In this document: piece by piece, positions 26,307 through 58,779 of the stretch
How positions within the stretch are numbered: position 1 is the stretch's first letter
Layout of the letters: each line of letters starts with the position of its first letter
Source: Anaerolineales bacterium
Lineage (GTDB): Bacteria; Chloroflexota; Anaerolineae; Anaerolineales; UBA11858
Assembly: GCA_049644685.1 (NCBI GenBank)
Contig: JBARSJ010000071.1
Span: 35,829 to 99,828, forward strand
Direction of reading: 5' to 3'
Length of the DNA: 64,000 bases
Program-made: the position numbers and the translations under genes
The notes under the pieces: generated by a model
Told to the model about the DNA's origin: nothing
The model's database searches: none
Seen by the model: the letters and a program-made list of their open reading frames with translations, nothing else

Positions 26307-26379
26307 CGCCCTCGGCAGGATTCGAACCTGCAGCCGTCGGATTAGAAGTCCGGTGCTCTATCCATTGAGCTACGAGGGC
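26307..26379 (-). tRNA. tRNA-Arg (anticodon TCT)
   Basis: Minus strand reads GCCCTCG-TA-GCTC-AATGGATA-GAGC-A-CCGGA-CTTCTAA-TCCGA-CGGCT-GCAGG-TTCGAAT-CCTGC-CGAGGGC-G; cloverleaf folds by hand; CCA not encoded. Confidence 0.9.
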
Positions 26380-31885: not shown

Positions 31886-31910
31886 GTAGAAAAATAATAA
31901 GGGACCTAGA

Positions 31911-31950
31911 GGATCCCGGAGTTTCTAAAACTCCGGGATCCTTTACTTTT
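31911..31950. terminator. strong hairpin terminator (ancestrally shared by convergent efp-operon and mutL)
   Basis: GGATCCCGGAGTT-tctaa-AACTCCGGGATCC 13-bp perfect stem followed by TTTACTTTT. Confidence 0.75.
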
Positions 31951-32231
31951 ATCTCGGACCTGTTCTGCTTTGCTATCATGAAGAAAGTTTCGACTAAAGT
32001 CGTAGAAAGCTTGCCCTGAATCCTGAAGTGTACCGGGTGATAAATCACCCGGCTAAAAGCAGCGCCCTGAAGGGCTTGGATGAGATACTGCAATATAAAA
32101 TAAGCCCCCGTTCGGGGGCGCAGTTCTTAGCCCGGACATGAATGTCCGGGTATTCTTAAAGGGTTTCTTGATTTGATAGGATTGGTTTTTTAACTGTCCC
32201 TTTTCCTTAAATTATCTCGGACCTGTTCTGC
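31949..32231. repeat. 263-bp period: 20-bp direct repeat TTATCTCGGACCTGTTCTGC (31949-31968 and 32212-32231) bracketing an insertion-like 243-bp segment
   Basis: Both copies identical; the right copy is the last 6 codons plus stop of mutL. Confidence 0.85.
32039..32152. repeat. structured ~113-nt repeat, copy A (second copy at 41336-41448)
   Basis: Shares GATAAATC-CCCGGCTAAAA-GCGCCC...GGGC...TTAGCCCGG-hairpin-CCGGGT blocks with copy B; three local hairpins. Confidence 0.75.
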
Positions 32232-33945
32232 CAAATTTCCTTTCCAGCAAATCAACCGACAAATGAATCATTGTTGGACGTCCATGGGGACATGTCCGCG
32301 GAGATATGCAGGCTTCTAAATCCAGCAGCAATTGTTTACTCTCCTCAGGAGATAAGATCTGCCCGGCTTTTACTGAAGCCCTTTTGCAGATCCTGGCAAT
32401 AATTTTCTGTTCGATATTTTTCTCAAGCGGGGTTTCATCTTCCTCAAGATCTTCAACTGCCGCTCTGAGGATTCCTTCAGGGGATGTGCCCTGCAGCAGC
32501 GCTGGTACAGCCCGGATAACAAAAGCGCCTGGTCCAAAGCCTTCCAGGTCAAATCCTAATTCCCCAAACAATTCAAGATGTTCATTCACCAGATCTGCGC
32601 TGCTGGGGGATAACTCAACCACCACAGAATCGAGCAAAATCTGAGAAGGCACGCTTTTATCTTTGATTGAGATAAATTTCTCGAATAAAATTCTTTCGTG
32701 AGCAGCGTGCTGGTCAATCAGGTACAATCCATCGGGACCTTCCGCTATCAGATAGGTTGCGGCTACTTGCCCGATCAGCCGTAGAATTGGTGTTCCCATT
32801 CCTGCGCTGATCTGCCCGGGTTCCACTAAAGCGCCAAAAGAACCATCATCTTTCGCCATCTCCCAGGCCGGGTCTATCTGCCGCTGAACATCCCGATGAT
32901 CCGGCGCTGGACCACTCCATAACCTGACTCCCCCCAGATTACCTGCCCCTGGAACAGGAGTGTTGGCCAACAAAGCCCGTCTGACCGCCCTCCCCACGCC
33001 GCGAAAGATTTCCCCCTTATCCTCAAATCTCACTTCTGCCTTGGTTGGGTGCACATTGACATCCACCTTGTCCGCTGGGAGTTCCAGAAAGAGAACCGAA
33101 ATGGGATATCTGCCCTTCATTAATAAGGTGTGGTAAGCCTGAGTCAGGGCTTTTGTCAGGGCAGGATCCTGGACCGGGCGCTGGTTGACAAAGAAGAGGA
33201 TTTCCCGCCGGTTAGATCGCGTTAATCCCGGAGGGCTGATAAATCCATTCACCGCCAGCAGATCATCCTCGGAAAGAACCTCTATCATCTGCCTGGCTGT
33301 TCCAACGCCGTATACCGCAGTGATCACTTCCCTGAGATCTCCACTGCCGCTGGTTTGAAATACCAGCTCATCATCCTGATAAAGTTTCAGACGGACCCCG
33401 GGGTTTGCAAGCCCATAGCGGCTGACAATATCATTGATATGCCTTTTCTCTGTCCGATCGGTCTTGAGGAATTTTAATCTCGCAGGTACATTGTATAACA
33501 GGTGCTCTACCCGAACGGTTGTCCCGGGCGGTATTCCCAGCTGAGTGGATGGTTTAATTTCTCCTCCCTCTACTTTTATACTGGCACCCAGGTCCTCACG
33601 CTGGACCCGGGATATCAGTGACAGCTGAGAGACAGATCCAATCGAGGCTAAAGCTTCACCGCGGAAACCCAATGTAGAGACCCGGAACAAATCCGCCGCA
33701 TCTCGCAATTTGCTAGTTGCGTGACGGTGCACAGCCAGTGTCAGTTCCTCAGCCGGGATTCCCGCCCCATTGTCCACTACTTCAATCAGGCGTTTTCCTG
33801 CCTCGCGGACCAGAATTGTGATCTGATCTGCCCCGGCATCAAGCGCATTCTCGATTAATTCCTTCACCACTGAGGAGGGACGTTCCACAACCTCTCCGGC
33901 AGCAATTTGTGAGGCAACTTCTTCTGACAATATTTGGATGGACAT
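32212..33945 (-). CDS. mutL: DNA mismatch repair protein MutL
   Basis: MSIQILSEEVASQIAAGEVVERPSSVVKELIENALDAG GHKL ATPase N-terminus, GFRGEAL; ATG at 33945 preferred over 33972. Confidence 0.93.
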   Translation of the reverse strand: MSIQILSEEVASQIAAGEVVERPSSVVKELIENALDAGADQITILVREAGKRLIEVVDNGAGIPAEELTLAVHRHATSKLRDAADLFRVSTLGFRGEALASIGSVSQLSLISRVQREDLGASIKVEGGEIKPSTQLGIPPGTTVRVEHLLYNVPARLKFLKTDRTEKRHINDIVSRYGLANPGVRLKLYQDDELVFQTSGSGDLREVITAVYGVGTARQMIEVLSEDDLLAVNGFISPPGLTRSNRREILFFVNQRPVQDPALTKALTQAYHTLLMKGRYPISVLFLELPADKVDVNVHPTKAEVRFEDKGEIFRGVGRAVRRALLANTPVPGAGNLGGVRLWSGPAPDHRDVQRQIDPAWEMAKDDGSFGALVEPGQISAGMGTPILRLIGQVAATYLIAEGPDGLYLIDQHAAHERILFEKFISIKDKSVPSQILLDSVVVELSPSSADLVNEHLELFGELGFDLEGFGPGAFVIRAVPALLQGTSPEGILRAAVEDLEEDETPLEKNIEQKIIARICKRASVKAGQILSPEESKQLLLDLEACISPRTCPHGRPTMIHLSVDLLERKFGRTGPR

Positions 33946-34068
33946 GAAGATATTATAACGGAGTGGGGACAATGAATGGGGAAAAATCTCCCCGATTTCT
34001 TAGTCAGTTTTGCTTGATATCATTCGCGCGGTTCATCCTGCAGGATCAGGATCAGGTATAATGCGGAT

Positions 34069-34716
34069 ATGCATTTTTCTACCCTTTTTTTTGATCTTGA
34101 CGCGACACTTTATCCTGCCTCGAACGGACTATGGGAACAAATCAGACTCCGGATCTACAAATTCATGCTGGAAAAAATTGGAATCCCTGAGGCTGAGATC
34201 CCTGCCACAAGAGACAAATATTGGACCACTTATGGAACTACACTGGAAGGCCTCCGAATTCACCATCAGGTAGAGCCAGATGACTATCTGAAATATGTTC
34301 ATGATCTCCCCTTGAAGGATTTCCTGGAACCGGACCCGATTCTGCGGGACTTACTGAAGACCCTTCCCCAGGATTTATGGGTCTTTACTAACGCGGATCG
34401 CCGCCATGCAGACAGAGTTCTGAATGAGCTGGGAATTAGCGATCTCTTTTCAGGGATTGTGGACCTTCTTGCGCTGAATTTTATAGTTAAACCTAACCGA
34501 AAAGCCTACCAGATTGCACTGAAGCTAGCAGGTGTGATTGATCCTGAAAGATGTGTGATGTTTGATGACCTGGTTCAAAACCTGATACCTGCCAAAGAAC
34601 TCGGGTTTTATACCTCGCTGGTTGGGGAAAACGGTTCTAACAACCAGGTTGATATTCAGTTACAGTCAATCCATGAGATGAAAGAAAAAATGCCCCAGCT
34701 ATGGTCCCGGGAATGA
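34069..34716 (+). CDS. HAD-superfamily hydrolase (pyrimidine 5'-nucleotidase-like)
   Basis: FFDLDATLY motif I, FTNA motif II, FDDLVQN motif IV-like. Confidence 0.8.
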   Translation: MHFSTLFFDLDATLYPASNGLWEQIRLRIYKFMLEKIGIPEAEIPATRDKYWTTYGTTLEGLRIHHQVEPDDYLKYVHDLPLKDFLEPDPILRDLLKTLPQDLWVFTNADRRHADRVLNELGISDLFSGIVDLLALNFIVKPNRKAYQIALKLAGVIDPERCVMFDDLVQNLIPAKELGFYTSLVGENGSNNQVDIQLQSIHEMKEKMPQLWSRE

Positions 34717-34752
34717 GCCAGGTCAATTCCTGCCAATGATGAGGAAAAACCA

Positions 34753-37700
34753 ATGAGCGAAAAAGAGTATCCTCAGCAAATCCGATACAGCTACAGCATC
34801 AGCCTCTTGCGCGCTATCTCAATGAGCCTGGGTGTGATGCTGGTAATCTCTGTCCTTGTCCTGCTGGGTGATTTAATAACCACAGACGGAGCTTCACTCC
34901 CCGTTATTATCCTGCTGTCCTCATTAGTCATAGTAGGAAATCTGCTCGGGTACGTTGAACTTTCTATGAGCGTTCCTCAACCCGGCGGAGCTTATCGGCT
35001 TATTCAAGACTGCGAGGAAGGAAACTGGCTGGCATTTTTAACCGGCTGGGCGCTGCTTCTGGCAGGAATTACCGCTGGCGGGATCCTTATCCAGGGTTTT
35101 GCCCGGCAAAGCACTGCCCTGGTTGAAACCCTGGCTGGTATCAGTCTACCGCAATTCCCCTTTGCAGTCGGAATTCTCCTGCTCACAGCCGGGATTAAAC
35201 TTCTACCCCTCAGGAAGAACAGGAATGGCTATCTGCTGCTGCTCCTCCTCGCTATAATCCTGGTTTTCTGCCTGGCTGCTTTACCAAAAATAAATTTAAA
35301 TAACCTGGAACCAACAAGTCCTGATTGGAGTGTTTCATTTAATCTGCTGCTGATTTCTTTTCTCGGCCTGGAAATCACGGCTGGTTTGCAAGGTGAAATT
35401 ACCAAACGCACTACGAATGCTCCCAGAGCTTTGTTTATTACCCCCATACTCGCCGGTATAGTCACTGCCTTGATTGCCGGTATTGTCAGTGGAGTATTCC
35501 CTCCCGGATCCACCGCTGCGCTGGGACAGCCGCTGGCTGCGTTGGCTGATCTGGTCGCTGGAAAATGGGCCGGGGTCGGAATATTATTCCTGAGCATTAC
35601 AGCTATCCCCCTGGCATTAAACAGAATCATAACTCTCCTGACCCGCCAGGGGTATGCTATGACAAGTGATGGATTTTGGCCTGAATCCCTTAAACGAACC
35701 AACCAACACTCAAACACACCGATACTCCTAATTGCCGTCTTCACAATTCTGATTGCCCTGACACTTTTTTTCCCCCTGGATTATTTAGCCCAGCTGGGCG
35801 GGCTGCTCTACCTGATCGTGCTAATGGCGGTTAACTTCACCCTCACCAGAAGGAAACAAATCACCGCAGCTCCCTTTCACCTTCCCCTTCACCCCTGGAT
35901 TCCAGCTCTGGTTTTGGTTTTTGATTTACTGCTCATTCTGACCTGGGCAGAATACCTTCCTGCTGCTGGATTGCTGCTTTTGATCGGGTTTGCCATTTTT
36001 ATTGGATACGGACGGCACCACAGCATCAAAGCCAAAGAAGGTGTCACAGTTTTTAAATCACCCTTGGAAGAAGTGAAAACCAAACAGAGCGTTCGTGTTC
36101 TAGTCCCAATCGCTAATCCGGATACCGCGGAAGCTTTACTTCGTTTAGCCGGCACACTTGTCCGCCAGCAAGGAGGAAAAGTCATCGCCCTGCGGGTGAT
36201 TACTGTGCCCGGCCAGGTTCCCCTTTCCGAGGGCAGTTCACAGGCAGAAACCGACTATGCTCTTTTGGACCGGGCGGTAGACCAGGCAACAAAAGAGGAG
36301 TTCCGGGTTCAAACCATGACCCGCGTATCGCGCAGTGTTTCGGAAGGTATCCTGGATACCGCAAGGGAGGAACAGGTCGACCAGATTTTGCTCGGATGGC
36401 TCGGTGACACCCGCTCTATCTCTAATTCGCTGGGACCGGTTATTGACCCGGTCATTAAAAATGCTCCCTGTGATGTTTTAATCGTGAGGGGAGACCATAC
36501 TCAGGAAATAAAGTCCATCCTGGTTCCTACTGCCGGAGGTCCCAACGCTCCAATTGGAGCCCGCTTGGCAGCTACACTTTCTCAGATTTATGGGGCTGCT
36601 GTAACCGGACTGTATGTCCAGGTTGGCCGGGCTACCCCCCGCCGGATGGACGAAAACCGGCAGACTATTGAAGATACCCTAGAGGGGCTGACCTTCAACC
36701 AACCGCCTGAAAAAAAGGTAGTAATGGCCAACAATGTCCTGGATGGCATCCTTAAGGAAGCCGAAGGCTACGACCTAGTCATTGTCGGCGCCACAGAGCA
36801 GGGATCCTTTGACCAATTTGCTTTTGGAAGCATCCCCCTCAGAATTGCTGCCCAGGCGCCGAACACATCCATTATGGTCAAAGGATACAGCGGCGCCCGG
36901 GAATTCCTTTTTCGCAGAACACTGACCGCGATCTTTAACCTCTTTCCTACCTTAACAACGGAAGAACAGCTTGGGGTCCGGGAGGAACTGATTGAAGATG
37001 CGCAGCCCGGCTCAGATTATTTCGTGCTGATTGTTTTATCTTCAATCATCGCTACCCTGGGACTGCTGCTTAATAGCCCTGCAGTTGTCATCGGGGCTAT
37101 GCTTGTAGCCCCGTTGATGTCACCCATACTTGGGTTTTCACTGGGAATAATCCTTGGCGAAGGACGGTTGGTCAGGGCCTCACTGGAATCCGTCTTCAAG
37201 GGCGTAATGGCATCAATAATTGTCGCGATCATAATCGGTTTACTTTCTCCCTTAAAGGAGATGACACCCGAAATCATCTCCCGAACTCAACCGACTCTCT
37301 TGGATTTATTAATCGCCCTGGCTTCCGGTATGGCCGGCGCTTATGCGGTGAGCAGAAAAGATGTCAGCGCAGCTTTACCTGGCGTAGCAATTGCCGCGGC
37401 CCTGGCGCCGCCTCTCGGTGTAGTTGGTTTGGGGTTCGCAAATGGGAACATGCCGGCAGCTGGCGGCGCTCTACTGCTGTTCACCACTAACCTGGTCACC
37501 ATCAGTCTTGGCGGTGTAATCATCTTCACCTTGCTGGGTATTCATCCCCTGAATCTGGAACCAGAGACCAAAAAACGAATCCAGAGAGGTGTGACAGGAA
37601 TTTTATTTCTGGTCTTTATGATCACCATTCCCCTGGCAATTATTATGAACGGGATCATCAAACAAACCCGGGAACAACAGACCATTGAGCGAGTCTTGCT

Positions 37701-37905
37701 GGAATCCCCTCTCACAGAAGATATGTCCATCATCAATATCGAAAGGGCCCAGTCCCGGGACAAACTGTTGATCAGTGCGACAGTTCGATCCACAGAACCG
37801 CTGGACCAGGAGACTGTTAATGACCTGGCTACAACTTTGGAAAATGAACTGAATCGCCCCCTGGATCTGGATATAATATTCCTCCCTATCATACGATCAG
37901 AATAG
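34753..37905 (+). CDS. 1050-aa membrane fusion: APC-type permease-like domain + tandem universal-stress-protein (Usp) domains + DUF389-like membrane domain
   Basis: ~12 N-terminal TM helices; VLVPIANPDTAEALLRLA and ILVPTAGGPNA Usp-like starts; C-terminal LNSPAVVIGAMLVAPLMSPILG typical of DUF389. Confidence 0.75.
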   Translation: MSEKEYPQQIRYSYSISLLRAISMSLGVMLVISVLVLLGDLITTDGASLPVIILLSSLVIVGNLLGYVELSMSVPQPGGAYRLIQDCEEGNWLAFLTGWALLLAGITAGGILIQGFARQSTALVETLAGISLPQFPFAVGILLLTAGIKLLPLRKNRNGYLLLLLLAIILVFCLAALPKINLNNLEPTSPDWSVSFNLLLISFLGLEITAGLQGEITKRTTNAPRALFITPILAGIVTALIAGIVSGVFPPGSTAALGQPLAALADLVAGKWAGVGILFLSITAIPLALNRIITLLTRQGYAMTSDGFWPESLKRTNQHSNTPILLIAVFTILIALTLFFPLDYLAQLGGLLYLIVLMAVNFTLTRRKQITAAPFHLPLHPWIPALVLVFDLLLILTWAEYLPAAGLLLLIGFAIFIGYGRHHSIKAKEGVTVFKSPLEEVKTKQSVRVLVPIANPDTAEALLRLAGTLVRQQGGKVIALRVITVPGQVPLSEGSSQAETDYALLDRAVDQATKEEFRVQTMTRVSRSVSEGILDTAREEQVDQILLGWLGDTRSISNSLGPVIDPVIKNAPCDVLIVRGDHTQEIKSILVPTAGGPNAPIGARLAATLSQIYGAAVTGLYVQVGRATPRRMDENRQTIEDTLEGLTFNQPPEKKVVMANNVLDGILKEAEGYDLVIVGATEQGSFDQFAFGSIPLRIAAQAPNTSIMVKGYSGAREFLFRRTLTAIFNLFPTLTTEEQLGVREELIEDAQPGSDYFVLIVLSSIIATLGLLLNSPAVVIGAMLVAPLMSPILGFSLGIILGEGRLVRASLESVFKGVMASIIVAIIIGLLSPLKEMTPEIISRTQPTLLDLLIALASGMAGAYAVSRKDVSAALPGVAIAAALAPPLGVVGLGFANGNMPAAGGALLLFTTNLVTISLGGVIIFTLLGIHPLNLEPETKKRIQRGVTGILFLVFMITIPLAIIMNGIIKQTREQQTIERVLLESPLTEDMSIINIERAQSRDKLLISATVRSTEPLDQETVNDLATTLENELNRPLDLDIIFLPIIRSE

Positions 37906-38074
37906 AAATAATTGGGGTAAGATCTTATCCTTAACTTGATTCAATAAGATTGGGGCATCTTAATAATTATTTGATATACTTTTGAGAGTGAATTAATCTC
38001 CCGGTGATAACCTTTTTGGTATGACAAAATAAGTTTAGGAGATCTCCCGGGGAACTTTATAGCGAGGAAATTGG

Positions 38075-39340
38075 ATGAAAAAGAGAACCTGGATCATTTT
38101 CGGAATAGTAGGCGGGTTGATCATCATTGCCAGCGCTTTCTCAGCTGGCGCGATTGTCGGCAATATTTTATTACCCAAACCAGACCTGTCCTGGTTTTCC
38201 AAATCAACCCAGATTGTGCCAACACAAGCTGTTGATAACGCCCCAACAGTTGATCCCTCCGTCATTATCTCGACTGAGGAATTGTTTATTCCTTTTTGGG
38301 AGACCTGGGAAATCATTCATGATCAATACGTTGACCAACCGGTTGACAATACAACCTTGATGAGAGGAGCAATTTCAGGCATGCTGGATTCATTGGGAGA
38401 TCAGCATACTTCCTATATGAATCCAGACCAATATATGCAGGCCAATATTCCAATGAATGGAGAATATGAAGGAATTGGTGCCTGGGTTGATACCACGAGC
38501 GAGTACCTCACCATCATCAGTCCGATGCCTAATTCTCCAGCAGAAGAAGCCGGGTTATTACCCGGAGACCAGGTGATTATGATTGACGGGGAAGATATGA
38601 CCGGTATTGATGGTTCTCTGGTGATCAGGAAAGTTCTTGGTCCTACCGGTTCCAAAGTTGTTTTAACCATCCGCCGCGAAGGAACTCCGGAACCTTTTGA
38701 TGTCCCCATTATCCGGGAAAAGATCATCCTCCCCAGCATTGAAAGTAAAATGCTGGAAGAGAATATTGGCTACGTTCAGATCATGACCTTCGGAGCTGAT
38801 ACCCGATCTGAACTCAGAGAAAACTTGGAAGGATTGCTGGAACAGAACCCGCTTGGATTAATTGTGGACTTGCGAAATAACGGGGGCGGATACCTTCAAA
38901 CAGCTGTAGAGGTGGGATCTGAATTCATTGCCGAAGGTGTAATTCTCTATGAAGATTATGGTACTGACGAGGAAATGGAAGAATTCCACGCTCATAAGAG
39001 AGGTCTTGCTACCGAAATTCCTCTTGTTTTACTGGTCAATGAAGGTTCAGCTTCCGCATCAGAGATAGTTGCCGGAGCAATCCAGGACCATCAGCGGGGG
39101 CCTCTAGTTGGCGCAATAACCTTTGGCAAAGGTTCGGTCCAGAATTGGGTTGAGCTGAGAAATAACCAGGGTGCGGTCCGGGTGACTATTGCCCGTTGGC
39201 TGACCCCGGACAAGAGACAGATCCATGAAACAGGTCTCACCCCAGGGTTCCTGGTAGAATTTACCGAGGAAGATTTCGAGGCCGATCTGGATCCCCAGCT
39301 GGATAAAGCAATTGAAGTAATGCTGGATATGATAGATTAA
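38075..39340 (+). CDS. S41-family carboxy-terminal processing peptidase
   Basis: N-terminal TM anchor, PDZ (SPAEEAGLLPGDQVIMIDG), catalytic region LVNEGSASASEIVAGAIQD and K in TFGKGSVQ. Confidence 0.9.
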   Translation: MKKRTWIIFGIVGGLIIIASAFSAGAIVGNILLPKPDLSWFSKSTQIVPTQAVDNAPTVDPSVIISTEELFIPFWETWEIIHDQYVDQPVDNTTLMRGAISGMLDSLGDQHTSYMNPDQYMQANIPMNGEYEGIGAWVDTTSEYLTIISPMPNSPAEEAGLLPGDQVIMIDGEDMTGIDGSLVIRKVLGPTGSKVVLTIRREGTPEPFDVPIIREKIILPSIESKMLEENIGYVQIMTFGADTRSELRENLEGLLEQNPLGLIVDLRNNGGGYLQTAVEVGSEFIAEGVILYEDYGTDEEMEEFHAHKRGLATEIPLVLLVNEGSASASEIVAGAIQDHQRGPLVGAITFGKGSVQNWVELRNNQGAVRVTIARWLTPDKRQIHETGLTPGFLVEFTEEDFEADLDPQLDKAIEVMLDMID

Positions 39341-39359
39341 TTAATCAGGAAACGAAACA

Positions 39360-40058
39360 ATGTTCTACTTTAATCCACAATACCTGTTGTTCATGGCGCC
39401 GGCGATTATCGCCATGCTGGCAGCGCAGTGGTATGTAAAATCCACCTACAATAAATGGGGCAAGATACCTACCAGCTCCCGTCTGACCGGCGAACAAGCG
39501 ACTCAAAGATTAATTTCAATCGGAGGGCTGCATGATGTTGAGATTCAGCAGATTCAGGGTCAGCTGACCGATCATTATGATCCCAGGAAAAAATTGCTCA
39601 GTTTATCCCCTGCTGTCTACCAGGGCAATTCAGTTGCTTCCCTCGCCATTGCTGCCCATGAACTGGGGCATGCTCTGCAGGACAAGGAAAATTATTTTCC
39701 ACTTCGTTTAAGATCAACCCTTGTGCCGGCTGTGAACATCGGTTCCACATTGGGATGGATCTTGATTGTGGTTGGTTTGTTAATTAACGCCATTGGCCTG
39801 GCCTGGCTGGGTGTTATTGCATTCTCTGGCGGCGCAATATTTGCCCTGGCAACCCTCCCGGTAGAATTAAATGCTTCCTCCCGGGCAAAACAATTGCTGA
39901 GAGACAGCGGGGTTATCTCCTCCTCGGAAGAAGAGCGGGGAGTTAATAATGTCCTGAATGCAGCGGCGTTAACCTACGTTGCTTCCCTGTTTACGGCAGT
40001 GATGCAGCTGCTCTACTGGATTTCCATCGTCTCCGGAGGACGGGGAAGACGGCGATAA
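39360..40058 (+). CDS. membrane zinc metallopeptidase (YugP-like, Zn_peptidase_2)
   Basis: AAHELGHALQ HExxH motif, flanking TM helices, ~230 aa. Confidence 0.8.
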   Translation: MFYFNPQYLLFMAPAIIAMLAAQWYVKSTYNKWGKIPTSSRLTGEQATQRLISIGGLHDVEIQQIQGQLTDHYDPRKKLLSLSPAVYQGNSVASLAIAAHELGHALQDKENYFPLRLRSTLVPAVNIGSTLGWILIVVGLLINAIGLAWLGVIAFSGGAIFALATLPVELNASSRAKQLLRDSGVISSSEEERGVNNVLNAAALTYVASLFTAVMQLLYWISIVSGGRGRRR

Positions 40059-40146
40059 TCCAAATAACAAAAATCTCCCCCATCGACTCATCAATAAATA
40101 ATACCAGGCATAATTACCCCCAAATGATTTCTGCTATAATCATCCC

Positions 40147-41178
40147 ATGCGAAATTTCATCATCGCCGTAGGCTTGCTGCTGGGAGTGATCTTCTTAGCA
40201 AGCAATTTTACCGAAATCGAACAGATCACAGCCACCCTCCAGCGGGGAGATTGGCATTTTATTCTGCTATCTGTCTTATTGGTATTGCTCTGGCTTGTCA
40301 ATATGGCAGCATCCTATAAAACAATTTTTCATGTAATCGGAATCGAGGAAACTTTAGGTCAGCTGCTGATTCTGACTGCCGCCGCCACGTTTATCAATGT
40401 GGTTGCACCTTCCGGAGGGGTTGGCGGGGTGTCTGTTTTCATCGCTGATGCCAGGCAAAAGGGAAAAACCGGCGCCAGGGCATTGGTCGCAGGAGCTTTG
40501 TTTGTAATTTTTGATTATCTGGGATTTTTTCTGCTATTAAGTCTGGGTTTAATTGTCCTCTTCCGCAGGAATATCCTTGGCGGAACAGAGATTGCCGCTT
40601 CGGTGATCTTACTTCTTATGTTCACAGGCATGAGCTTGCTGCTCTATCTGGGGTTTAAATCCGAACAAGCGCTCGCTGATGCGCTGGCCTGGTTAGCCAG
40701 AGCTGGAAACCGCCTCTTGAAACCATTACGACGCCGCAAAGAATTCAGCGAAGAAGGAGCAAGGTCCATTGCCCATGACGCGGTAGGTGGACTTAATGAA
40801 CTGCGCAATCGCCCCCTGGAATTAATTTATCCCTTCCTTCTGGCAATCTCCAATAAATTACTCCTGCTGTTAATCTTTTTCCTGATCTTTAAAGCATTTC
40901 AAGTGCCGGCATCCATAGGCACCCTTATCGCGGGCACGAGTCTGTCTTATTTATTCCTGATTGTCTCCCCTACCCCTTATGGTTTGGGTGTCGTGGAGGG
41001 CGTCTTAACCCTTGCCCTTCGTTCAATGTATATTCCGGTCAGCGATGCGCTGGTGATTACCATAGCATACCGGGGAGTGATCTTCTGGATCCCCTTCCTC
41101 CTGGGCGCAGTGTCTGTCCGCTGGGTAGGAAGGCCGACAGAGGAGAAACTCGACAGATCACCAGAAGCAAGCGATTAG
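40147..41178 (+). CDS. flippase-like / LPG-synthase-TM (UPF0104) family membrane protein
   Basis: 343 aa polytopic membrane protein; family call from overall pattern only. Confidence 0.65.
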   Translation: MRNFIIAVGLLLGVIFLASNFTEIEQITATLQRGDWHFILLSVLLVLLWLVNMAASYKTIFHVIGIEETLGQLLILTAAATFINVVAPSGGVGGVSVFIADARQKGKTGARALVAGALFVIFDYLGFFLLLSLGLIVLFRRNILGGTEIAASVILLLMFTGMSLLLYLGFKSEQALADALAWLARAGNRLLKPLRRRKEFSEEGARSIAHDAVGGLNELRNRPLELIYPFLLAISNKLLLLLIFFLIFKAFQVPASIGTLIAGTSLSYLFLIVSPTPYGLGVVEGVLTLALRSMYIPVSDALVITIAYRGVIFWIPFLLGAVSVRWVGRPTEEKLDRSPEASD

Positions 41179-41255
41179 AATCGCAGCTAGCTGTAGAACC
41201 CATCTTCGGGGGAGAACAGCCTTTATCTTCTCAACTGCCCTGATATTCCAAGATT

Positions 41256-41310
41256 AAAGGAAGCGGTATCCTTCTGAGGATACCGTTTCCAGGGTTGTGG
41301 GGCTCCTGCT
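41256..41310. repeat. 55-bp direct repeat, copy 1 (contains 13-bp-stem hairpin)
   Basis: AAAGGAAGCGGTATCCTTCTGAGGATACCGTTTCCAGGGTTGTGGGGCTCCTGCT; 52/55 identical to 41501-41555. Confidence 0.9.
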
Positions 41311-41335
41311 CTAGCGTTGTAAACAAACTCCGTGG

Positions 41336-41448
41336 GATAAATCCCCCGGCTAAAAACTGCGCCCGTTGGGCTTACAATCATAGACTGAGTATTAGTTTAG
41401 CCCAATTTATTGGGCGTTGTTTTTAGCCCGGTCATTCATGACCGGGTG
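41336..41448. repeat. structured ~113-nt repeat, copy B
   Basis: Collinear with 32039-32152; hairpin stems differ by paired substitutions (CCCGGTCAT..ATGACCGGG vs CCCGGACAT..ATGTCCGGG). Confidence 0.75.
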
Positions 41449-41500
41449 AGAGAGGGAATGGTTTCCTTTCTCTACCGATCAAGGGAGGGATCTCAATATC

Positions 41501-41555
41501 AAAGGAAGCGGTATCCTTCTGAGGATACCGCTTCCGGGGTTGTGGGGCTCCCGCT
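41501..41555. repeat. 55-bp direct repeat, copy 2 (perfect hairpin GGAAGCGGTATCC-ttctga-GGATACCGCTTCC)
   Basis: Lies just downstream of the minus-strand gene 41589-42104; on the minus strand the hairpin is followed by TTTGATATT. Confidence 0.9.
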
Positions 41556-48399: not shown

Positions 48400-49281
48400 A
48401 TGGCAGCCAAACGACCCGGCCTGGGAAAAGGCCTTGATGCACTCATTCCTATCCATCCTGATGGGGAAATCTTATCCGAATTTGGCGGAGTTCTGGAAGT
48501 TCCGCTGGAGTTGATCGCAGCCAATCCTCATCAACCCCGGAGAGGTTTTGACGAAGACAAATTAAAGGAACTGGCCGCATCCATCAAGGAGCACGGCATC
48601 ATTCAGCCGTTGGTTTTATCAGCCCAAGACCCAGCTGTGAAATCAGATCAAAAATATGCCGTGATTGCCGGTGAACGGCGTTTAAGGGCAGCAAAACTAG
48701 CTGGATTATCGACCGTGCCGGCCATCCTGCGGGAAGCGGACAGCCAGGATCATCTAGTGGTGGCATTAATTGAAAATGTCCAACGAGCAGATCTCAACCC
48801 TCTGGAAGCCGCATCCGCCTACCAAAGCCTCTCGGTTGAGTTTGGCCTCTCCCATGAAGAAATTTCGAAACGGGTGGGCAAAAGCAGAACTGCCGTCACC
48901 AACACTATACGTCTGTTAGATCTGCCCGATGTAGTCCAGCAGGCAGTGCGGAAAAACCAGGTCAGCATGGGTCATGCCCGGGCGCTGCTGGCGCTGCCAA
49001 ATATCAAAGCTCAGAGTTCCGCCCTGCAGACCATCCTGACCCAAGAACTAAATGTGCGGCAGACGGAAGCGCTGGTTAATAAATTCAAGGGTAAAAAGCA
49101 GCCCAAACCTCCCAAAAAGGACACCAAGTCACCTGAGCTTAAATCTCTTGAAGAGGAATTGCAGTCCTCGCTGGGAACAAAAGTCCGCCTGACGCGGAGT
49201 AAAAGCGGCAAGGGAACCATTACCATTCATTATTATTCGGATGAAGAATTCAATACCTTGATCGACCGCTTCCGGAAATAA
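48400..49281 (+). CDS. parB: chromosome partitioning protein ParB/Spo0J
   Basis: NPHQPRR, GIIQPLV, IAGERRLRAAKLAG (ParB box), HTH region, follows parA. Confidence 0.93.
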   Translation: MAAKRPGLGKGLDALIPIHPDGEILSEFGGVLEVPLELIAANPHQPRRGFDEDKLKELAASIKEHGIIQPLVLSAQDPAVKSDQKYAVIAGERRLRAAKLAGLSTVPAILREADSQDHLVVALIENVQRADLNPLEAASAYQSLSVEFGLSHEEISKRVGKSRTAVTNTIRLLDLPDVVQQAVRKNQVSMGHARALLALPNIKAQSSALQTILTQELNVRQTEALVNKFKGKKQPKPPKKDTKSPELKSLEEELQSSLGTKVRLTRSKSGKGTITIHYYSDEEFNTLIDRFRK

Positions 49282-51401: not shown

Positions 51402-52064
51402 ATGTCACAGATACTACGAATTCTAATCTACGTCATATTTGGGATCCCACTCATCTTAATCGTGCTGCATACGATAGTGCGAATCATCAGGCACTTTTAT
51501 AAGTTTCCAATGCCCGAATTCTTTGCCAATATCATCGACAATCCACTTCGCCGGCGAATCCAGCCCCCAAATAACACCCCTACCAGGCATAAGATTGAAC
51601 CAGGAATGAAAGTTTTGGAAGTAGGTCCAGGAAATGGAAGCTATACAATGGCAACTGCCCGTAGAGTTGGGGAGAATGGAAAAGTCATAACAATAGATAT
51701 CGAACCGAAGATGATTGATCGAGTTATGAAGAGAGCCCAAATTGAGGGTATTAAGAATATAGAGGCTCGCGTTGCGAATGTATTTGACCTTCCTTTCGAA
51801 GATGGTTATTTCGATGCAGTTTATATGATTACTGTGATTGGTGAGATCCCCACTCCAGAGAGAGCGATGAGAGAGTTCTATCGGGTTTTATCGCCGCAAG
51901 GCACATTGTCATTCAGTGAACTATTAATGGATCCTGATTATCCGCTCGCAGGTTCGATCGAAAAAAATGCACATTCGGTCGGCTTCCGACTACAGGAAAA
52001 GGTCGGGAACTTCTTCCATTACACATTAATTTTCGAGAAGGATAATTTATTGAAAGCTGCCTAA
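51402..52064 (+). CDS. cassette 1: class I SAM-dependent methyltransferase with N-terminal TM helix
   Basis: VLEVGPGNGSYT (motif I), ITIDIEP, FDAVYM; stop TAA lies inside the attC R'' box GCCTAAC. Confidence 0.85.
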   Translation: MSQILRILIYVIFGIPLILIVLHTIVRIIRHFYKFPMPEFFANIIDNPLRRRIQPPNNTPTRHKIEPGMKVLEVGPGNGSYTMATARRVGENGKVITIDIEPKMIDRVMKRAQIEGIKNIEARVANVFDLPFEDGYFDAVYMITVIGEIPTPERAMREFYRVLSPQGTLSFSELLMDPDYPLAGSIEKNAHSVGFRLQEKVGNFFHYTLIFEKDNLLKAA

Positions 52065-52153
52065 CCCCCGCTTCACCCGACAGCCGGTTAGGGCGCCCAG
52101 AGTTAGAGAACTGGAAAGGAAGACCCGGCTGCGGGTGAGCTCATCCGTTATGC
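52059..52153 (+). other. attC site 1 (95 bp)
   Basis: R'' GCCTAAC ... R' GTTATGC; arms CACCCGACAGCCGG / CCGGCTGCGGGTG pair leaving an unpaired A. Confidence 0.85.
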
Positions 52154-52162
52154 TAAATCCGA

Positions 52163-52570
52163 GTGCTTGGAATGCAAATCTTTACAATGACTGATATTAC
52201 GATGAAGAAAGAGAAAAAATATTCACCGAGTGGCATTATTACTATTACATTACTGCTTTCTCTCGCAGTGGTCAATGCTTTTTGGTTAATCGCAAGTTGG
52301 CATGGTGGTGCTTTGATAGCCCTGGCATTCTATTTAGTAATATCTTATCTTTGCCTCAGAAGGCAACATTTCCAAGCAGGTGTAATCGCGGGTATCCTCG
52401 GATTTGGAATTCATATATATGAGTTATTTGTACTGGGGACGAGTGAATTGATAGGAATTGATCAAGTTTACTTCTACGTGAATCTGATTCTTCCTATTCC
52501 TCTCACTATCACAAGTTATTTGGCATCTCACAAGGAATCTGCTGGACATGAAGAGAAAACAAATTCTTAA
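52163..52570 (+). CDS. cassette 2: small 4-TM membrane protein, unknown function
   Basis: Hydrophobic helices; start uncertain (GTG 52163, ATG 52172/52187/52202). Confidence 0.6.
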   Translation: MLGMQIFTMTDITMKKEKKYSPSGIITITLLLSLAVVNAFWLIASWHGGALIALAFYLVISYLCLRRQHFQAGVIAGILGFGIHIYELFVLGTSELIGIDQVYFYVNLILPIPLTITSYLASHKESAGHEEKTNS

Positions 52571-52583
52571 ACTGAGAGATTAC

Positions 52584-52669
52584 GCATAACCCACGCTCCA
52601 CCCGAACCTTCGATACGCCCATTCGCTACTCTCAGGGCTTCTCAGGACGGGTGAGCTTTTCCGTTAGCC
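52584..52669 (+). other. attC site 2 (86 bp)
   Basis: R'' GCATAAC (reverse complement of cassette-2 start GTTATGC) ... R' GTTAGCC; loop consists of a CCTTCG...CTCAGGAC element. Confidence 0.8.
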
Positions 52670-52713
52670 AGCATAATAGCTCATATATCTGACCAATATA
52701 GGAGGAGGAATTC

Positions 52714-53394
52714 ATGCTTACAAACAGTCAGCTGATCAGAATAATTTCCCTCTTTTCCTTGCTTGTGTGTTTGCCCTTCATCACCGCTTGTTCAAACGCT
52801 GAGCAGGATCTCCCCCTGGAGCGGGTATCCCTGTCGAAACACGCTTGCATAAGTGGTAGCAGCTTTACCCCACACCTGCCATTAGGCGTCAATGATCAAA
52901 TCAAGGCACCGGCTCTCGCCGGAGGTACTGTCAGGTCCGGTGATTTCCTGATTTCACTCTGGTTAATTTGCGATCCATCCCTTGCCTCAGATGACCCGGA
53001 TTTCCCAGAATACTCATGGCAAGAGTTCAGCGAAGTGCGGTATCTGGGCTTCCTTTCTGGTTGGGAGTATTTAGGGGACCCCCCGGACCAGGAGATCAAG
53101 GAATCTTTGACAATCAATGGGGAGGTCATAAGTGGGCACATAATCGCATCTCACACCGACCCTGAAAGAAGCTTGTCTAGAGGCGAGGGGCATGCAAGTT
53201 ATGGTCCGATCAACACCGAAAACCAAATCGTTGCCCAGGCCCTTGCCGCTGGAGAACCCGTTGATATCGTACTTACTATCTTTGGTTCTAAAACCCTTGC
53301 CGAAGTGCACCTGCGCGCATCGTTTGAGGAAACGCCGGATGGCTACCGCCTTCTCAGTGCCGAGATCCTGACGAACACTGGAAAACTACCATAA
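52714..53394 (+). CDS. cassette 3: lipoprotein of unknown function
   Basis: Signal peptide plus lipobox LPFITAC; RBS GGAGGAGG. Confidence 0.7.
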   Translation: MLTNSQLIRIISLFSLLVCLPFITACSNAEQDLPLERVSLSKHACISGSSFTPHLPLGVNDQIKAPALAGGTVRSGDFLISLWLICDPSLASDDPDFPEYSWQEFSEVRYLGFLSGWEYLGDPPDQEIKESLTINGEVISGHIIASHTDPERSLSRGEGHASYGPINTENQIVAQALAAGEPVDIVLTIFGSKTLAEVHLRASFEETPDGYRLLSAEILTNTGKLP

Positions 53395-53552
53395 TTGATA
53401 ACAGGAGGGCTTTACCGCCATGTTGATTGGGTATACCTACCATCACTTGATCGGGTATCATTCCCCATAATTATTGGTGCCCCGGTGTTTTACAATCTTC
53501 TCTTACCGCTGTTTTCTTTTTCCTTAATGGTCTCCCGTTTTATCTGAATGCG

Positions 53553-53652
53553 GGCTAACCCCCGCTCCACCCGACAGCCAGGGGCGGACCGGGGACCGAA
53601 AACGGAAGACCGGGAAAAACAATCTGGCTGCGGGTGAGCTATTCCGTTGGGC
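53553..53652 (+). other. attC site 3 (100 bp)
   Basis: R'' GGCTAAC (reverse complement of cassette-3 start GTTAGCC) ... R' GTTGGGC; arms CACCCGACAGCCAG / CTGGCTGCGGGTG. Confidence 0.85.
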
Positions 53653-53737
53653 GGCTGCGTTGCATGGTCAAGCTTCGAGAGAGCCAAAATAGTTGAGCAA
53701 TATACAGATGGCAGTCACAGCAGGAGGTCATGATCTG

Positions 53738-54397
53738 ATGAAATCAAATGTTGAGATAATCCAAGATATCGTTGAGCAGGTCGTTAATCAAAAGAAAATC
53801 GATATATATGACCAGTACATCAGCGAGGATTACATCTCGCGAGGATCTCCATATGTCGGTATGGGTTTTTCTGTAGACAGCTCAGGGAATAAGCACATCA
53901 TTGAAATCATTGTCCCTGGCAGCCCTGCCGAGGGGAAGCTCCAGGTGGGAGACGAGCTGCTCTGGGCAGAGGATGAACACCAGCGTTGGGTCACTTATGA
54001 GGATATAAAGCAGCGTATTTTGCAGAGTTATCGGGGCAACAAATACAAGGTGGGAGTACGTCGGGGTAATCAGACTCTCGAGGGTGAATTGACCAAAGAT
54101 TTATTCAAGGGCTTCGATACCCCCAAGGATCAGGCAAAGTCGGATCTGCGGGAGTTTATGACGAAAGAATTTCCAGATTTAAAAGCCACCATAAAGCAAA
54201 TTCTCGCAGATGGGGATATGGTTGTTTGTTTGCTGGAGTATCGCGGTAACCACGCTAACTTCGAGCGAGAGGCAGTTTGGCGAGAGGCCTGGTTTGTACG
54301 CCTGTCTGAAGGGAAAATCGTCGAGGACTGGACTGTTTTTGATGGAACTTCCTACTTTAATCAGCTTGGCTTCCAGATCATTCCGCCTAGCACCTGA
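53738..54397 (+). CDS. cassette 4: SnoaL/ester-cyclase-like protein with PDZ-like insertion
   Basis: ATG 53738 sits 10 nt after AGGAGG (ORF track starts at TTG 53693); NVEIIQDIVEQV... and DMVVCLLEYRGNH...GKIVEDWTVFD flank VPGSPAEGKLQVGDELL. Confidence 0.65.
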   Translation: MKSNVEIIQDIVEQVVNQKKIDIYDQYISEDYISRGSPYVGMGFSVDSSGNKHIIEIIVPGSPAEGKLQVGDELLWAEDEHQRWVTYEDIKQRILQSYRGNKYKVGVRRGNQTLEGELTKDLFKGFDTPKDQAKSDLREFMTKEFPDLKATIKQILADGDMVVCLLEYRGNHANFEREAVWREAWFVRLSEGKIVEDWTVFDGTSYFNQLGFQIIPPST

Positions 54398-54489
54398 TAC
54401 ATCTCGAATTTAAGATCTTTTCCTGCGATCGATTTTGGTATGTTGCAGGAAGAATGGGAAAATAGGATTTGAAAATAGTACTAAACGCC

Positions 54490-54615
54490 GCCCAACCACG
54501 CGTTAACGCTGACCCGGTTGTCGCCACGCTCCAGCCTGCTAGGTCTCGCGTAAAATCTTTTCGTCGTGCGGGGTTTAGAAGTCAAACCGCTGGGTAGGTT
54601 ACGCAAATGTTGGGT
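54490..54615 (+). other. attC site 4 (126 bp), divergent sequence class
   Basis: GCCGCCCAAC is the exact reverse complement of cassette-4 start GTTGGGCGGC; R' GTTGGGT; arms GCGTTAACGCTGACCC / GGGTAGGTTACGC with unpaired T and G. Confidence 0.75.
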
Positions 54616-54666
54616 TGCAGAAAATCAAAGATCACATTTAGAACATCAAAGTCATAAGGAGCATCA

Positions 54667-55578
54667 ATGTGCACATGTGAGAAATCGAAGATTGTATTTG
54701 ATACGACCACGTTAGAGAAGATAGTCAATGATCCCCAATGGGTTCTTGAAAATGAAGAGAAATTTTGGGCTGAGTACCGAGCTCAGATATTGACACGTAA
54801 ATGGGCAGAACATGTCAAATATGAAATTCCATACGAAGAATGGAGAGAGAAGATTGAAGGGTGGAAAAACTTATCGCTAGATGAACGAGAAAACCATGAA
54901 TTAATGAAGGTCGCCCAGCGGATACTATCAGCAAAAGATGAGTTTCTAGAGAAAGCATTGCCGCATGATTGTTCATTTTTGCCGGATGGCGTTGATTTGA
55001 GCGTAACAGTGCAGTTCACAGCATTTGTTCCACCATTTGCGTTTGCGATGGAAGACCTTGTAATCGATGTGGCCTCGAAGTATTGGAAAGGTAATCCAGA
55101 ACATGTATTGAATTTGCTTGTTCATGAAATATTTCATGTGGGTTACAGTTATTATCTAACAATACAAAATGAAAAGGAATTAGTTGAAGAAAGTTTATAT
55201 AAAATTCTGGACAATATTGTGAATGAAGGAATATGCACATATGTAGGGTATTGTGCTTTGCCAATCTTTCCAGTAGAAGATGAGCGGGATTATCGAATGC
55301 TGGAATATAATGATGAAGTTCACAGGTTGTTTGCGGATACGAATACTGTACTTTCGCAATATGGCATATTATCTGATGAAGAATTACAAAAACTATCTTG
55401 GGATAAGGGTGTCATTGGACGGGCATATTACGTAACAGGTGCCCATATGTGCAAAACAATTGATGAGACTAAGGGCAGAGATGCATTGATTGAAGTTTAC
55501 TCAAAAGGACCAATCTCAATTATTGAATATTACAACACAGTTGCAAATGATGATCTGAAAATATTACTTCCTGAATGA
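54667..55578 (+). CDS. cassette 5: putative HExxH zinc-peptidase-like protein (DUF2268-like)
   Basis: LLVHEIFHVGY motif; RBS AAGGAG; family assignment tentative. Confidence 0.6.
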   Translation: MCTCEKSKIVFDTTTLEKIVNDPQWVLENEEKFWAEYRAQILTRKWAEHVKYEIPYEEWREKIEGWKNLSLDERENHELMKVAQRILSAKDEFLEKALPHDCSFLPDGVDLSVTVQFTAFVPPFAFAMEDLVIDVASKYWKGNPEHVLNLLVHEIFHVGYSYYLTIQNEKELVEESLYKILDNIVNEGICTYVGYCALPIFPVEDERDYRMLEYNDEVHRLFADTNTVLSQYGILSDEELQKLSWDKGVIGRAYYVTGAHMCKTIDETKGRDALIEVYSKGPISIIEYYNTVANDDLKILLPE

Positions 55579-55591
55579 TAAGACAAGTGCA

Positions 55592-55722
55592 ACCCAACCC
55601 TCCATGTAGCCGACCCAGCGGGGCTGGGATGGTGAGCGTGGCGAAAATTGCACTCGAAGGTTCTAGATTACAATATTCGGGATTGAAAATCCCCGCTGGA
55701 TCGGCTAATGAAATCGTTATGC
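55592..55722 (+). other. attC site 5 (131 bp), divergent sequence class
   Basis: GCAACCCAAC is the exact reverse complement of cassette-5 start GTTGGGTTGC; R' GTTATGC; arms CATGTAGCCGACCCAGCGGGG / CCCCGCTGGATCGGCTAATG with unpaired G. Confidence 0.75.
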
Positions 55723-55748
55723 GGTAAAAAGTTTTATCTAGGTAAAAA

Positions 55749-57053: not shown

Positions 57054-57118
57054 TATTGGGATAGATTGGTTGCGATTGATCAAGTTTTGATACTGTTATT
57101 AATTGTAAGAATTCGACC

Positions 57119-57244
57119 GCTTAACCCCCGCTCCACCTGACTGCCGGTTTTTTACTGTTATCCCGCTTTTATTCCCCCTTATCGGTTTCAGTTCTATAAT
57201 CAATACCAGAAACACCTGGCAGCAGGTGAGCTCATCCGTTATAA
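57119..57244 (+). other. attC site 6 (126 bp)
   Basis: ACCGCTTAAC vs expected ACCGCATAAC (9/10 to cassette-6 start); R' GTTATAA; arms CACCTGACTGCCGG / CCTGGCAGCAGGTG. Confidence 0.8.
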
Positions 57245-57283
57245 AGCAATTAGGAATACGGCTAACTCCATGGAGGTAAATTC

Positions 57284-58108: not shown

Positions 58109-58112
58109 TGTT

Positions 58113-58277
58113 TTATAACCCCCGCTCCACCCGACAGCCAGGTTGGATGGCAATTATAATGGGATGGGCATTAAATCTTTAATAACAAGACCAGCAGACT
58201 TTTTGTTTTATACTGATTAAGGGCTGCGGGTGCCCTTCGCTGTACTCAGGATGCTTCGCGAAGCTCATCCGTTAGGC
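58113..58277 (+). other. attC site 7 (165 bp) with nested 29-nt insert
   Basis: R'' TTATAAC ... R' GTTAGGC; GGGTG[CCCTTCGCTGTACTCAGGATGCTTCGCGA]AGCTCATCC. Confidence 0.8.
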
Positions 58278-58440
58278 TTTTTTTTTAATAATCATTGTTT
58301 GGCCTTTGGATCATGTGGGTTATGCAGAAACTATAAACGATGTGATTGTCAGTCACAATAAGACAAGTTGAAACAATAAAAGTATAATGCCATCACCATT
58401 CACAAGTTCGATATGAAAAATCTATTTAGGAGAATAATCA

Positions 58441-58779
58441 ATGGAAAGTTCTAATAAAACAAACCATCTGGCAATTGTTAGTTTTGTTAGTGGGATGATA
58501 GCCCTCATATGTATTGTGTTAATATTTGTATTTTACAACTCGGCAGAAACCGCAGAGGGCATCATCAACATCACAGATGGAATAATAATGCCTGTGCGAA
58601 ATCTCTGTGTGATAGTGACGCTATTAACGGGTATTCTTGCGGTTAAAGATATAAAGAAAACGGGCGGAACTAAAAAAGGAAAAATATTTTCCTGGTTCGG
58701 CATAGTTGTTGGAGCTGGCTGGATCCTCTTTGGATTGCTTGTTGGCATAACATTTCTCATAGCTGAAATTCTTCACTGA
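58441..58779 (+). CDS. cassette 8: small 3-TM membrane protein (DUF4190-like)
   Basis: RBS AGGAG; HLAIVSFVSGMIALICIVLIF-type helices. Confidence 0.6.
   Translation: MESSNKTNHLAIVSFVSGMIALICIVLIFVFYNSAETAEGIINITDGIIMPVRNLCVIVTLLTGILAVKDIKKTGGTKKGKIFSWFGIVVGAGWILFGLLVGITFLIAEILH

Follow-up and report, generated by a model that had tools for sequence, protein, structure and literature searches.

Two similar, hairpin-rich repeats, here called copy A and copy B, lie in a 64,000-nt stretch of the genome of an Anaerolineales bacterium (contig JBARSJ010000071.1, positions 35,829 to 99,828 of the forward strand; "the window" denotes this whole stretch), and the question they raise is whether they are small structured RNA genes or mobile DNA. 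The original prediction, made from the letters of the window, had left the choice open between a small RNA family and an element like a miniature inverted-repeat transposable element (MITE). Our analysis favors mobile DNA: with a probability of about 0.8, the repeats derive, as non-autonomous miniatures, from a 530–564-bp element with a single gene (tnpA) for a Y1 (HUH/tyrosine) transposase of single-stranded DNA (ssDNA). The observations behind this reading are the architecture of the element, the conservation of its hairpins, an insertion polymorphism, and the linkage to a Y1 transposase gene. The MITE-like half of the prediction stood, as tnpA elements have the two halves of the repeat at their ends, and copy A is inserted; the small-RNA half did not, given the lack of an Rfam match, a promoter, and a terminator. 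A match to a known terminal structure of an insertion sequence (IS) or MITE had been named in advance as the outcome that would speak against the prediction, and in substance such a match is what we found.

Full-Length Elements With a Transposase Gene

Two of the loci fetched for comparison (numbered with the prefix L), L011 and L015, have an open reading frame (ORF) that starts with MPYGQLYYHIIWGTKY after the 5' half of the repeat, and have the 3' half directly after its stop codon. The products, of 134 and 132 aa, match Pfam Y1_Tnp (PF01797; E 8.5e-23 and 2.8e-24) and score 61.3 and 63.3 bits with NCBIfam transpos_IS200 (NF033573; cut-off 55); with REP_Tyr_transpos (NF047646; cut-off 80) they score only 18.3 and 23.6 bits. 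Profile searches place a left end (LE) of the repeat upstream and a right end (RE) downstream of every tnpA homolog fetched (L011, L015, L022/23, L024–26, and L027–29), the homologs having 59–81% amino acid identity to the L011 protein. Five of these full-length elements are independent (L011, L015, L022, L024, and L027; 530–564 bp), with tnpA products of 132–136 aa.

A full element reads LE, short 5' untranslated region (UTR), tnpA, RE. The LE is composed of hairpin H1, CTAAAAAC, and hairpin H3a, and the RE of hairpin H3b, GTTnTTAG, and hairpin H4. Each of the two inverted ends thus consists of a 20-nt palindrome, CTAAAAAC, two arbitrary nucleotides (nn), and a GCCC..GGGC hairpin, and a search with the LE profile also hits the RE, on the minus strand (E 3e-4 to 1e-2). 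Positions 1–52 and 70–118 of copy B align to L011, with tnpA in the 463-nt gap between the two parts; hence, the repeats of the window read as internal-deletion, tnpA-less derivatives made of LE and RE; they retain ~52 nt of the LE and ~50 nt of the RE, while ~460 nt are missing, including all of tnpA.

Several variant arrangements were seen in passing. A solo RE with ~20 nt of its downstream flank lies ~56 nt upstream of the LE at the orthologous loci L011 (1–34) and L022 (4908–4957), the arrangement there being RE-spacer-LE-tnpA-RE. A lone LE is present in L019. In the miniature copy at L013 7946–8075 / L016 5569–5698, 13 nt (TTTGCAGCGCTGT) are inserted internally, in the spacer of the right end, apparently as a local duplicate of the GCGTCGTT region.

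Hairpins of the Two Repeats and Their Covariation

The alignment agrees with the two collinear copies of ~113 nt originally described, the true lengths being 118 nt (A) and 117 nt (B); the element starts 6 nt to the left of the earlier limit, because that reading had begun inside the H1 loop. The copies are 72.5% identical over 120 nt (BLAST, E 1.1e-10). The 11-mer CCCGGCTAAAA occurs in the window only in copies A and B (pattern search), and nhmmer --max with the LE and RE profiles, together with pattern searches, finds in the window no further copies. In each copy, the ends form the inverted repeat GGCTAAAA..GCGCC / GGCGC..TTTTAGCC.

Both pairs of compensatory substitutions quoted in the original prediction are correct: H4 has CCCGGACAT/ATGTCCGGG in copy A and CCCGGTCAT/ATGACCGGG in copy B, and H3b has GCCCCC/GGGGGC in A and GCCCAA/TTGGGC in B. 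A third paired change, not reported there, is found in H1, with CCGGGTGA/TCACCCGG in A and CCG(T)GGGA/TCCCCCGG in B. The H1 of copy B contains a T.C mismatch, a sign of decay, and the L020 ortholog of copy B has two further mutations in the same arm. Folded as RNA, copies A and B reach −60.3 and −56.6 kcal/mol (z −6.65 and −6.82 relative to dinucleotide shuffles); the reverse strands as RNA fold almost equally well (z −6.37 and −5.85), and the z-scores for ssDNA are −5.65 and −7.95.

For the covariation analysis we aligned 18 sequences, i.e., 12 miniature copies and six concatenated LE+RE pairs of full-length elements. Three of the local hairpins could be aligned, and 97.1% of their cells are paired; the 20-nt palindromes H1 and H4 at the two borders are 96–99% paired. 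Five pairs, spread over different lineages and hairpins, have changed on both sides: U-A / G-C in H1; A-U / C-G / G-C and A-U / C-G in H3b; C-G / A-U and U-A / A-U in H4. The covariation score of the local hairpins is 0.156 against 0.048 in shuffles, with none of 500 shuffles reaching the observed value and all slid controls much lower; the sequences being related, the shuffle result is not a calibrated probability. L005a, L010, L013, and F_L022 each have a broken pair or an indel.

The outer arms, described earlier as inverted repeats, are indeed such, as the LE and the reverse complement of the RE form ~35-nt inverted repeats. These repeats also account for the pairing of a long-range LE–RE outer stem (84.5% paired), which 313 of the 500 shuffles match; the outer stem was therefore rejected as a selected helix. 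The claim that covariation implies selection on structure thus holds for the four local hairpins and fails for the long-range stem. Since the hairpins are palindromic, covariation alone cannot distinguish RNA, ssDNA, and dimer-bound double-stranded DNA; the Y1 transposase context argues for ssDNA.

Insertion of Copy A and Mobility of the Family

Both repeats are intergenic and lie between convergent genes: efp with an ORF of 111 aa, orf111 (plus strand), and mutL (minus strand) for copy A; an LPG_synthase_TM gene (plus) and a TrmO-like gene (minus) for copy B. An exact look-up of the 111-aa protein returned no record. The orf111|mutL intergenic region is 326 nt long and holds copy A in the window and in L001 and L002; it is 63–80 nt long and free of the element in L030, L031, and L032 (88% amino acid identity of the orf111 product to that of the window) and in L034 and L035 (79%). 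An 18-bp perfect hairpin with T-tracts on both strands at 31907–31945, probably a bidirectional terminator common to the convergent genes, is kept in L030, and copy A is inserted between it and mutL.

The inserted segment is flanked by two identical 20-nt direct repeats, and the full-length element of L024 also lies within a 20-nt direct repeat (about 9835–9854 / 10509–10528). In both cases the repeats are copies of local sequence, the mutL 3' end for copy A and half of a terminator hairpin for L024, and 49–75 nt of unique filler separate them from the conserved ends. Neither this filler nor that beside copy B has a match in any fetched locus. Between the syntenic genomes L024 and L027 (~70% nucleotide identity), the tnpA element changes place, from FUR|LysM in L024 to dtd|acetyltransferase in L027. 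The empty site in relatives and the differing tnpA sites show that the family is, or was, mobile. Copy-specific complementarity between left and right flanks, as expected for insertion into a pre-existing palindrome, is weak (5.67 vs. 4.99 pairs of 12; permutation p 0.027).

Class and Inheritance of the Transposase

The HuH, WQ, and Y---Q--HH motifs are invariant in 17 homologs, HuH in the form (D/N)H(V/I)H; the invariant residues are H53, H55, W93, Q94, Y113, Q117, H120, and H121, and most homologs aligned are 132–140 aa long. The signature of TnpAY1 subclass 1.2 is DH[IV]H, WQ, and YIKNQKEHH (Y---Q--HH) in a protein of ~148 aa with no extra domains (PMC6006769, Table 1), while subclass 1.1, the true IS200 transposases, has W[TS] and Y[IV]ENQ, and the class 2 REP-associated tyrosine transposases (RAYTs; REP, repetitive extragenic palindromic sequence) have Y---NP (PMC6006769). 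Subclass 1.2 is described there as IS200-like, without IS properties, terminal hairpins, repeats, or associated REPs. The subclass 1.1 motifs are absent from the 17 homologs, and by its motifs the partner transposase would belong to subclass 1.2. The closest solved structures are those of the ISDra2 and IS608 TnpA proteins (2xm3, E 5e-10; 2a6m, E 7e-8).

The tnpA gene is under purifying selection (dN/dS 0.19–0.26), and its product diverges along with that of the neighboring dtd gene, the amino acid identities of TnpA and Dtd in three genome pairs being 73/75, 67/67, and 65/64%. It occupies a common locus in L011 and L022 (flanking DNA 88% identical) and in L015 and L027, although the flanking DNA of the latter is only 74% identical; each protein cluster at 90% was found on 1–8 contigs. 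The criteria separating RAYTs from insertion sequences were taken from PMC5581495. As IS behavior we counted several near-identical tnpA copies per genome (in subclass 1.1, on average 4.8 copies, 99% identical). Synteny, dN/dS, the tracking of dtd, and the few contigs per cluster resemble RAYTs more than insertion sequences, and in the few genomes seen tnpA behaves like a low-copy, vertically retained gene, with three lineages compared and a different site in L024.

A more distant tnpA of the subclass 1.2 type (43% identity) was found in L036, a 3.7-Mb metagenomic contig. Directly downstream of it, on one side only, lies a 300-nt doublet (10421–10719) with 40-nt inverted arms, 93% complementary, and two hairpins in each arm, like the architecture of the window element; the 20 kb fetched contain no other copies. 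This single case hints at a possibly broader association with repeats.

Distribution and Copy Number

A two-ended pattern scan with one genome per species yielded two true copies in one Anaerolineales metagenome-assembled genome (MAG; L005, L009), two chance matches, and, in a MAG of the Chloroflexia, a more weakly matching relative (L006). A scan of metagenomes with the 5'-end pattern gave ten related loci. The matches in L007, L008, and L018, which the scans of genomes and metagenomes had given, were rejected as due to chance, having no similarity outside the pattern, and so was L021, the sole match in viral contigs. The MAG CBDVDO01 has at least three copies, and copies sit in unrelated contexts across several Anaerolineae genomes; in ~90 kb of related Anaerolineae loci there are none besides those flanking tnpA.

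The L006 relative (3189–3287) retains CCCGGCTAAAA and the right-end hairpin CCCGGACAT-tcc-ATGTCCGGG, the A-T variant of copy A, with no recognizable H1. The family may thus extend beyond Anaerolineae.

Proposed Mechanism and Alternative Explanations

If the repeats are indeed miniature derivatives of the tnpA element, their hairpins would form on ssDNA, e.g., on the lagging-strand template; a TnpA dimer supplied in trans by a full-length copy elsewhere in the genome would bind them, and would cut and rejoin the element ends as in the peel-and-paste model of the family. These steps are extrapolated from the homology with the TnpA proteins of IS608 and ISDra2. Since the ends are inverted, TTAG and its hairpin are on the top strand at the RE and on the bottom strand at the LE, which is the arrangement of REP doublets (REPINs) and RAYTs, not that of IS608.

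Several observations weigh against this reading. The 64-kb window contains no tnpA (tblastn), so that a partner is assumed to reside in the organism, and the binding of the hairpins as ssDNA is predicted from homology. The IS608 model, with same-strand hairpins and a guide 5' of each, does not fit inverted ends. Inspection of 12 independent flanks revealed at the borders no target motif, cleavage site, or short target site duplication. Peel-and-paste transposition of the IS200/IS605 family leaves no target duplication; the 20-nt direct repeats around copy A and the L024 element therefore suggest that the mechanism of insertion may differ from it. Among 185,579 species genomes the two-ended pattern, which fits ~60% of known copies, has two true matches, indicating low copy number; given this low number and the stem mismatches that copy B is gaining, the window copies may be inactive relics.

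The last point can be made into an explanation of its own: the repeats would be dead internal-deletion copies, whose compensatory differences arose in separate autonomous sources before copying. We regard this as possible, if rather doubtful. The T.C mismatch in the H1 of copy B, with the two additional changes in the same arm of its L020 ortholog, the broken pairs or indels of L005a, L010, L013, and F_L022, the very low copy number, and the lack of tnpA in the window are what one would see in relics, and the differences between A- and B-type copies run through their whole length (73% identity), as if these derived from different masters. However, copy A is intact, has identical 20-nt flanks, and is missing in relatives at 88% amino acid identity, which points to a fairly recent insertion; and the B-type copies of several genomes share a G-C variant in H1 that is found in none of the five full-length elements, suggesting that the miniature form propagates. 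It is improbable that the repeats are instead REP-like elements serving the host, as stabilizers of mRNA 3' ends, barriers to transcription or RNases, or protein-binding sites, with the transposase only their historical source. Such roles are known for proteobacterial REP sequences (PMC3733652), and the position of both copies between convergent genes (copy A in the mutL 3' UTR, upstream of the terminator hairpin) and the high stability of the hairpins on both strands would suit them. Yet close relatives keep the genes and the terminator at an empty site, and so do not need the element there; no T-tract follows H1 or H4; and the hairpins are conserved beside tnpA as well, for which recognition by the transposase is the simpler account.

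The remaining explanation, in which the repeats are cis-regulatory RNAs or a family of genes for small structured RNAs, has already been largely refuted, and we give it hardly any weight. The covariation of the stems and the strength of the predicted folds (z about −6.7) would fit it, but the two strands fold equally well, the long-range stem that would define one RNA domain does not covary, the halves stand ~460 nt apart around a transposase gene in full-length elements, and copy A is absent from the site in relatives. No Rfam family comes near its threshold: at gathering thresholds the single match in the whole window is a tRNA at 26307–26379, and permissive scans of both copies, the check proposed with the original prediction, gave best E-values of at least 0.1 and 9–21 bits, compared to gathering thresholds of 40–300, which is chance level. 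Consensus scans showed no promoter-like site placed to transcribe either copy; a terminator scan revealed no T-tract at H1 or H4 on either strand, leaving the supposed gene with no terminator at its 3' end, and only the inner hairpin H3b gives weak matches to the terminator consensus. For lack of T-tracts after H1 and H4, a terminator function of the repeats was rejected as well.

Repeat X and Other Features of the Window

Copy B has 62-nt repeats on both sides (Table 1), which probably belong to another, dispersed and intergenic hairpin repeat, X, composed of a terminator-type hairpin followed by the tail GGGCTCCTGCTYKAGYKTTGTRANCAAA; other copies of X are at L005 2440–2537, L010 850–945, L033 16625–16720, and L019 726–820. 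A left end of the miniature element is located 0–9 nt past the X tail at three unrelated loci, namely copy B, L005b, and the solo LE of L019. That the 62-nt repeats are a target duplication is doubtful, since the tail also precedes the LE in L005 and L019; these two loci were considered as orthologs of locus B and rejected. X may be a preferred target or neighborhood of the element, or part of a composite element.

TABLE 1. Coordinates of the miniature elements, their hairpins, and the flanking repeats in the window
Feature	Position	Strand	Evidence and remarks
Copy A, miniature element (LE + RE, no tnpA)	32033..32150	+	118 nt; nhmmer LE E 9e-14, RE E 1e-12
Copy A, H1, left-end palindrome CCGGGTGA-taaa-TCACCCGG	32033..32052	+	folding, covariation
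Copy A, H3a, GCCC-tgaa-GGGC, inner hairpin of left end	32064..32075	+	folding; also in LE of full-length elements
Copy A, H3b, GCCCCC-gttc-GGGGGC, inner hairpin of right end	32104..32119	+	folding, covariation
Copy A, H4, right-end palindrome CCCGGACAT-ga-ATGTCCGGG, TTCTTAG just before	32131..32150	+	folding, covariation
Copy B, miniature element (LE + RE, no tnpA)	41330..41446	+	117 nt; nhmmer LE E 1e-16, RE E 4e-17
Copy B, H1	41330..41349	+	folding, covariation
Copy B, H3a, GCCC-gtt-GGGC	41361..41371	+	read straight from sequence
Copy B, H3b, GCCCAA-ttta-TTGGGC	41400..41415	+	covariation, consensus scan
Copy B, H4, CCCGGTCAT-tc-ATGACCGGG	41427..41446	+	folding, covariation
20-nt direct repeat TTATCTCGGACCTGTTCTGC, left copy (duplicate of mutL 3' end including stop codon)	31949..31968	+	alignment
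243-nt insertion relative to empty efp-orf111 / mutL site	31969..32211	+	alignment with L030, L031; 64 nt unique + copy A + 61 nt unique
20-nt direct repeat TTATCTCGGACCTGTTCTGC, right copy (functional mutL 3' end)	32212..32231	+	alignment
62-nt repeat D5a, adjoining copy B on its left; terminator-type hairpin with GGGGCTCCTGCT tail	41249..41310	+	part of dispersed repeat X
62-nt repeat D5b, includes terminator-like hairpin downstream of TrmO-like gene (minus strand)	41494..41555	+	92% identical to D5a

Two further features of the window were observed. Positions 52059–61600 contain at least nine copies of a 90–200-nt imperfect inverted repeat, each directly after a plus-strand ORF and spaced 525–3566 nt apart, that start with GCCTAAC (RYYYAAC), end with CCGTTAGG/GTTATGC (approximately GTTRRRY), and as ssDNA form long stems with single-base bulges. 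No integrase adjoins the array; ParB and amidohydrolase genes lie upstream, and PEMT and major facilitator superfamily (MFS) transporter genes downstream. It looks like an integron attC cassette array, and may be a cluster of attC sites lacking integron-integrases (CALIN) in an Anaerolineae genome. The cumulative GC skew has its minimum at ~42–46 kb, and a parB gene is at 48400–49281; the window may thus be near the replication origin. Copies A and B are on the same side of this region and have the same orientation.

Comparison With Known Systems

Most of what is known about Anaerolineae, which abound in digesters and sediments, comes from MAGs. In the annotation of these bacteria, the present result removes one candidate novel structured RNA and makes LE and RE profiles available for recognizing a small mobile-element family. 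Two oddities of this family are that tnpA is retained in synteny and that the flanking duplications are long.

The nearest parallels are the palindrome-associated transposable elements (PATEs) and MITEs of the IS200/IS605 family (Haloquadratum, PMC3119063; Halanaerobium, PMC7290912), which likewise are short gene-less elements made from the two hairpin-bearing ends of a Y1 IS, intergenic and dispersed, with no short target duplication directly at the borders; the partner transposase here also passes the NCBIfam IS200 cut-off. Unlike them, the Anaerolineae element has ~35-nt inverted ends with two hairpins each, instead of two similar hairpins in direct orientation with a guide sequence before each; its transposase has the motifs of subclass 1.2 instead of subclass 1.1, to which true IS200 belongs; and tnpA is apparently low-copy and syntenic across species, with no tnpB associated. 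Compared to IS608 and ISDra2, which provide the closest solved homologs of the transposase and also have subterminal hairpins at both ends, the element differs in that those carry tnpB, have cleavage sites 19 nt before and 10 nt after the hairpins, and use defined targets (TTAC or TTGAT), whereas no such conserved flank or target is seen here; the conserved TTAG stands on the 5' side of H4, whereas at H1 it is on the 3' side and reads CTAA, the 5' side of H1 showing no conservation.

With REPIN–RAYT systems the family shares a ~100–120-nt unit of two inverted hairpin-bearing repeats, a Y1 gene itself placed between inverted repeats, dispersed units that are inverted doublets, and a gene that stays at a common locus in species with 74% flanking identity, is under purifying selection, and diverges with a neighboring housekeeping gene. 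It differs in its protein, which is not a RAYT (Y---Q instead of Y---NP, and a score below the NF047646 cut-off); in lacking GT[AG]G at the hairpin foot, that of H4 being preceded by TTAG, TCAG, GCAG, or ACAG; and in apparently having few copies per genome, compared to tens to hundreds. Subclass 1.2 as published (PMC6006769) agrees in the HuH, WQ, and Y---Q--HH motifs, a length of ~135–148 aa, and apparently low copy number, but the Anaerolineae members have hairpin-bearing inverted ends, at five independent full-length loci, and miniature derivatives. A Y1 subclass published as having no IS properties, hairpins, or REPs is thereby linked to such ends and derivatives.

One may speculate further that this is the first repeat system for TnpAY1 subclass 1.2, in which a low-copy, vertically inherited Chloroflexota Y1 endonuclease maintains a few REPIN-like doublets, as an independent, IS200-side parallel to RAYT/REPIN domestication, and the doublets insert next to terminators non-canonically, not by classical peel-and-paste, with target duplications of at least 20 nt and unique filler; taken as a whole, this proposal is unlikely and put forward tentatively. 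The element itself is of a known kind (PATE/MITE, REPIN), its undescribed features being the subclass 1.2 partner, the inverted double-hairpin ends, the Chloroflexota host, and low copy number with a syntenic tnpA. Its arrangement is intermediate between IS200/PATE and RAYT/REPIN, which makes it relevant to the question of a single or a repeated domestication of Y1 transposases.

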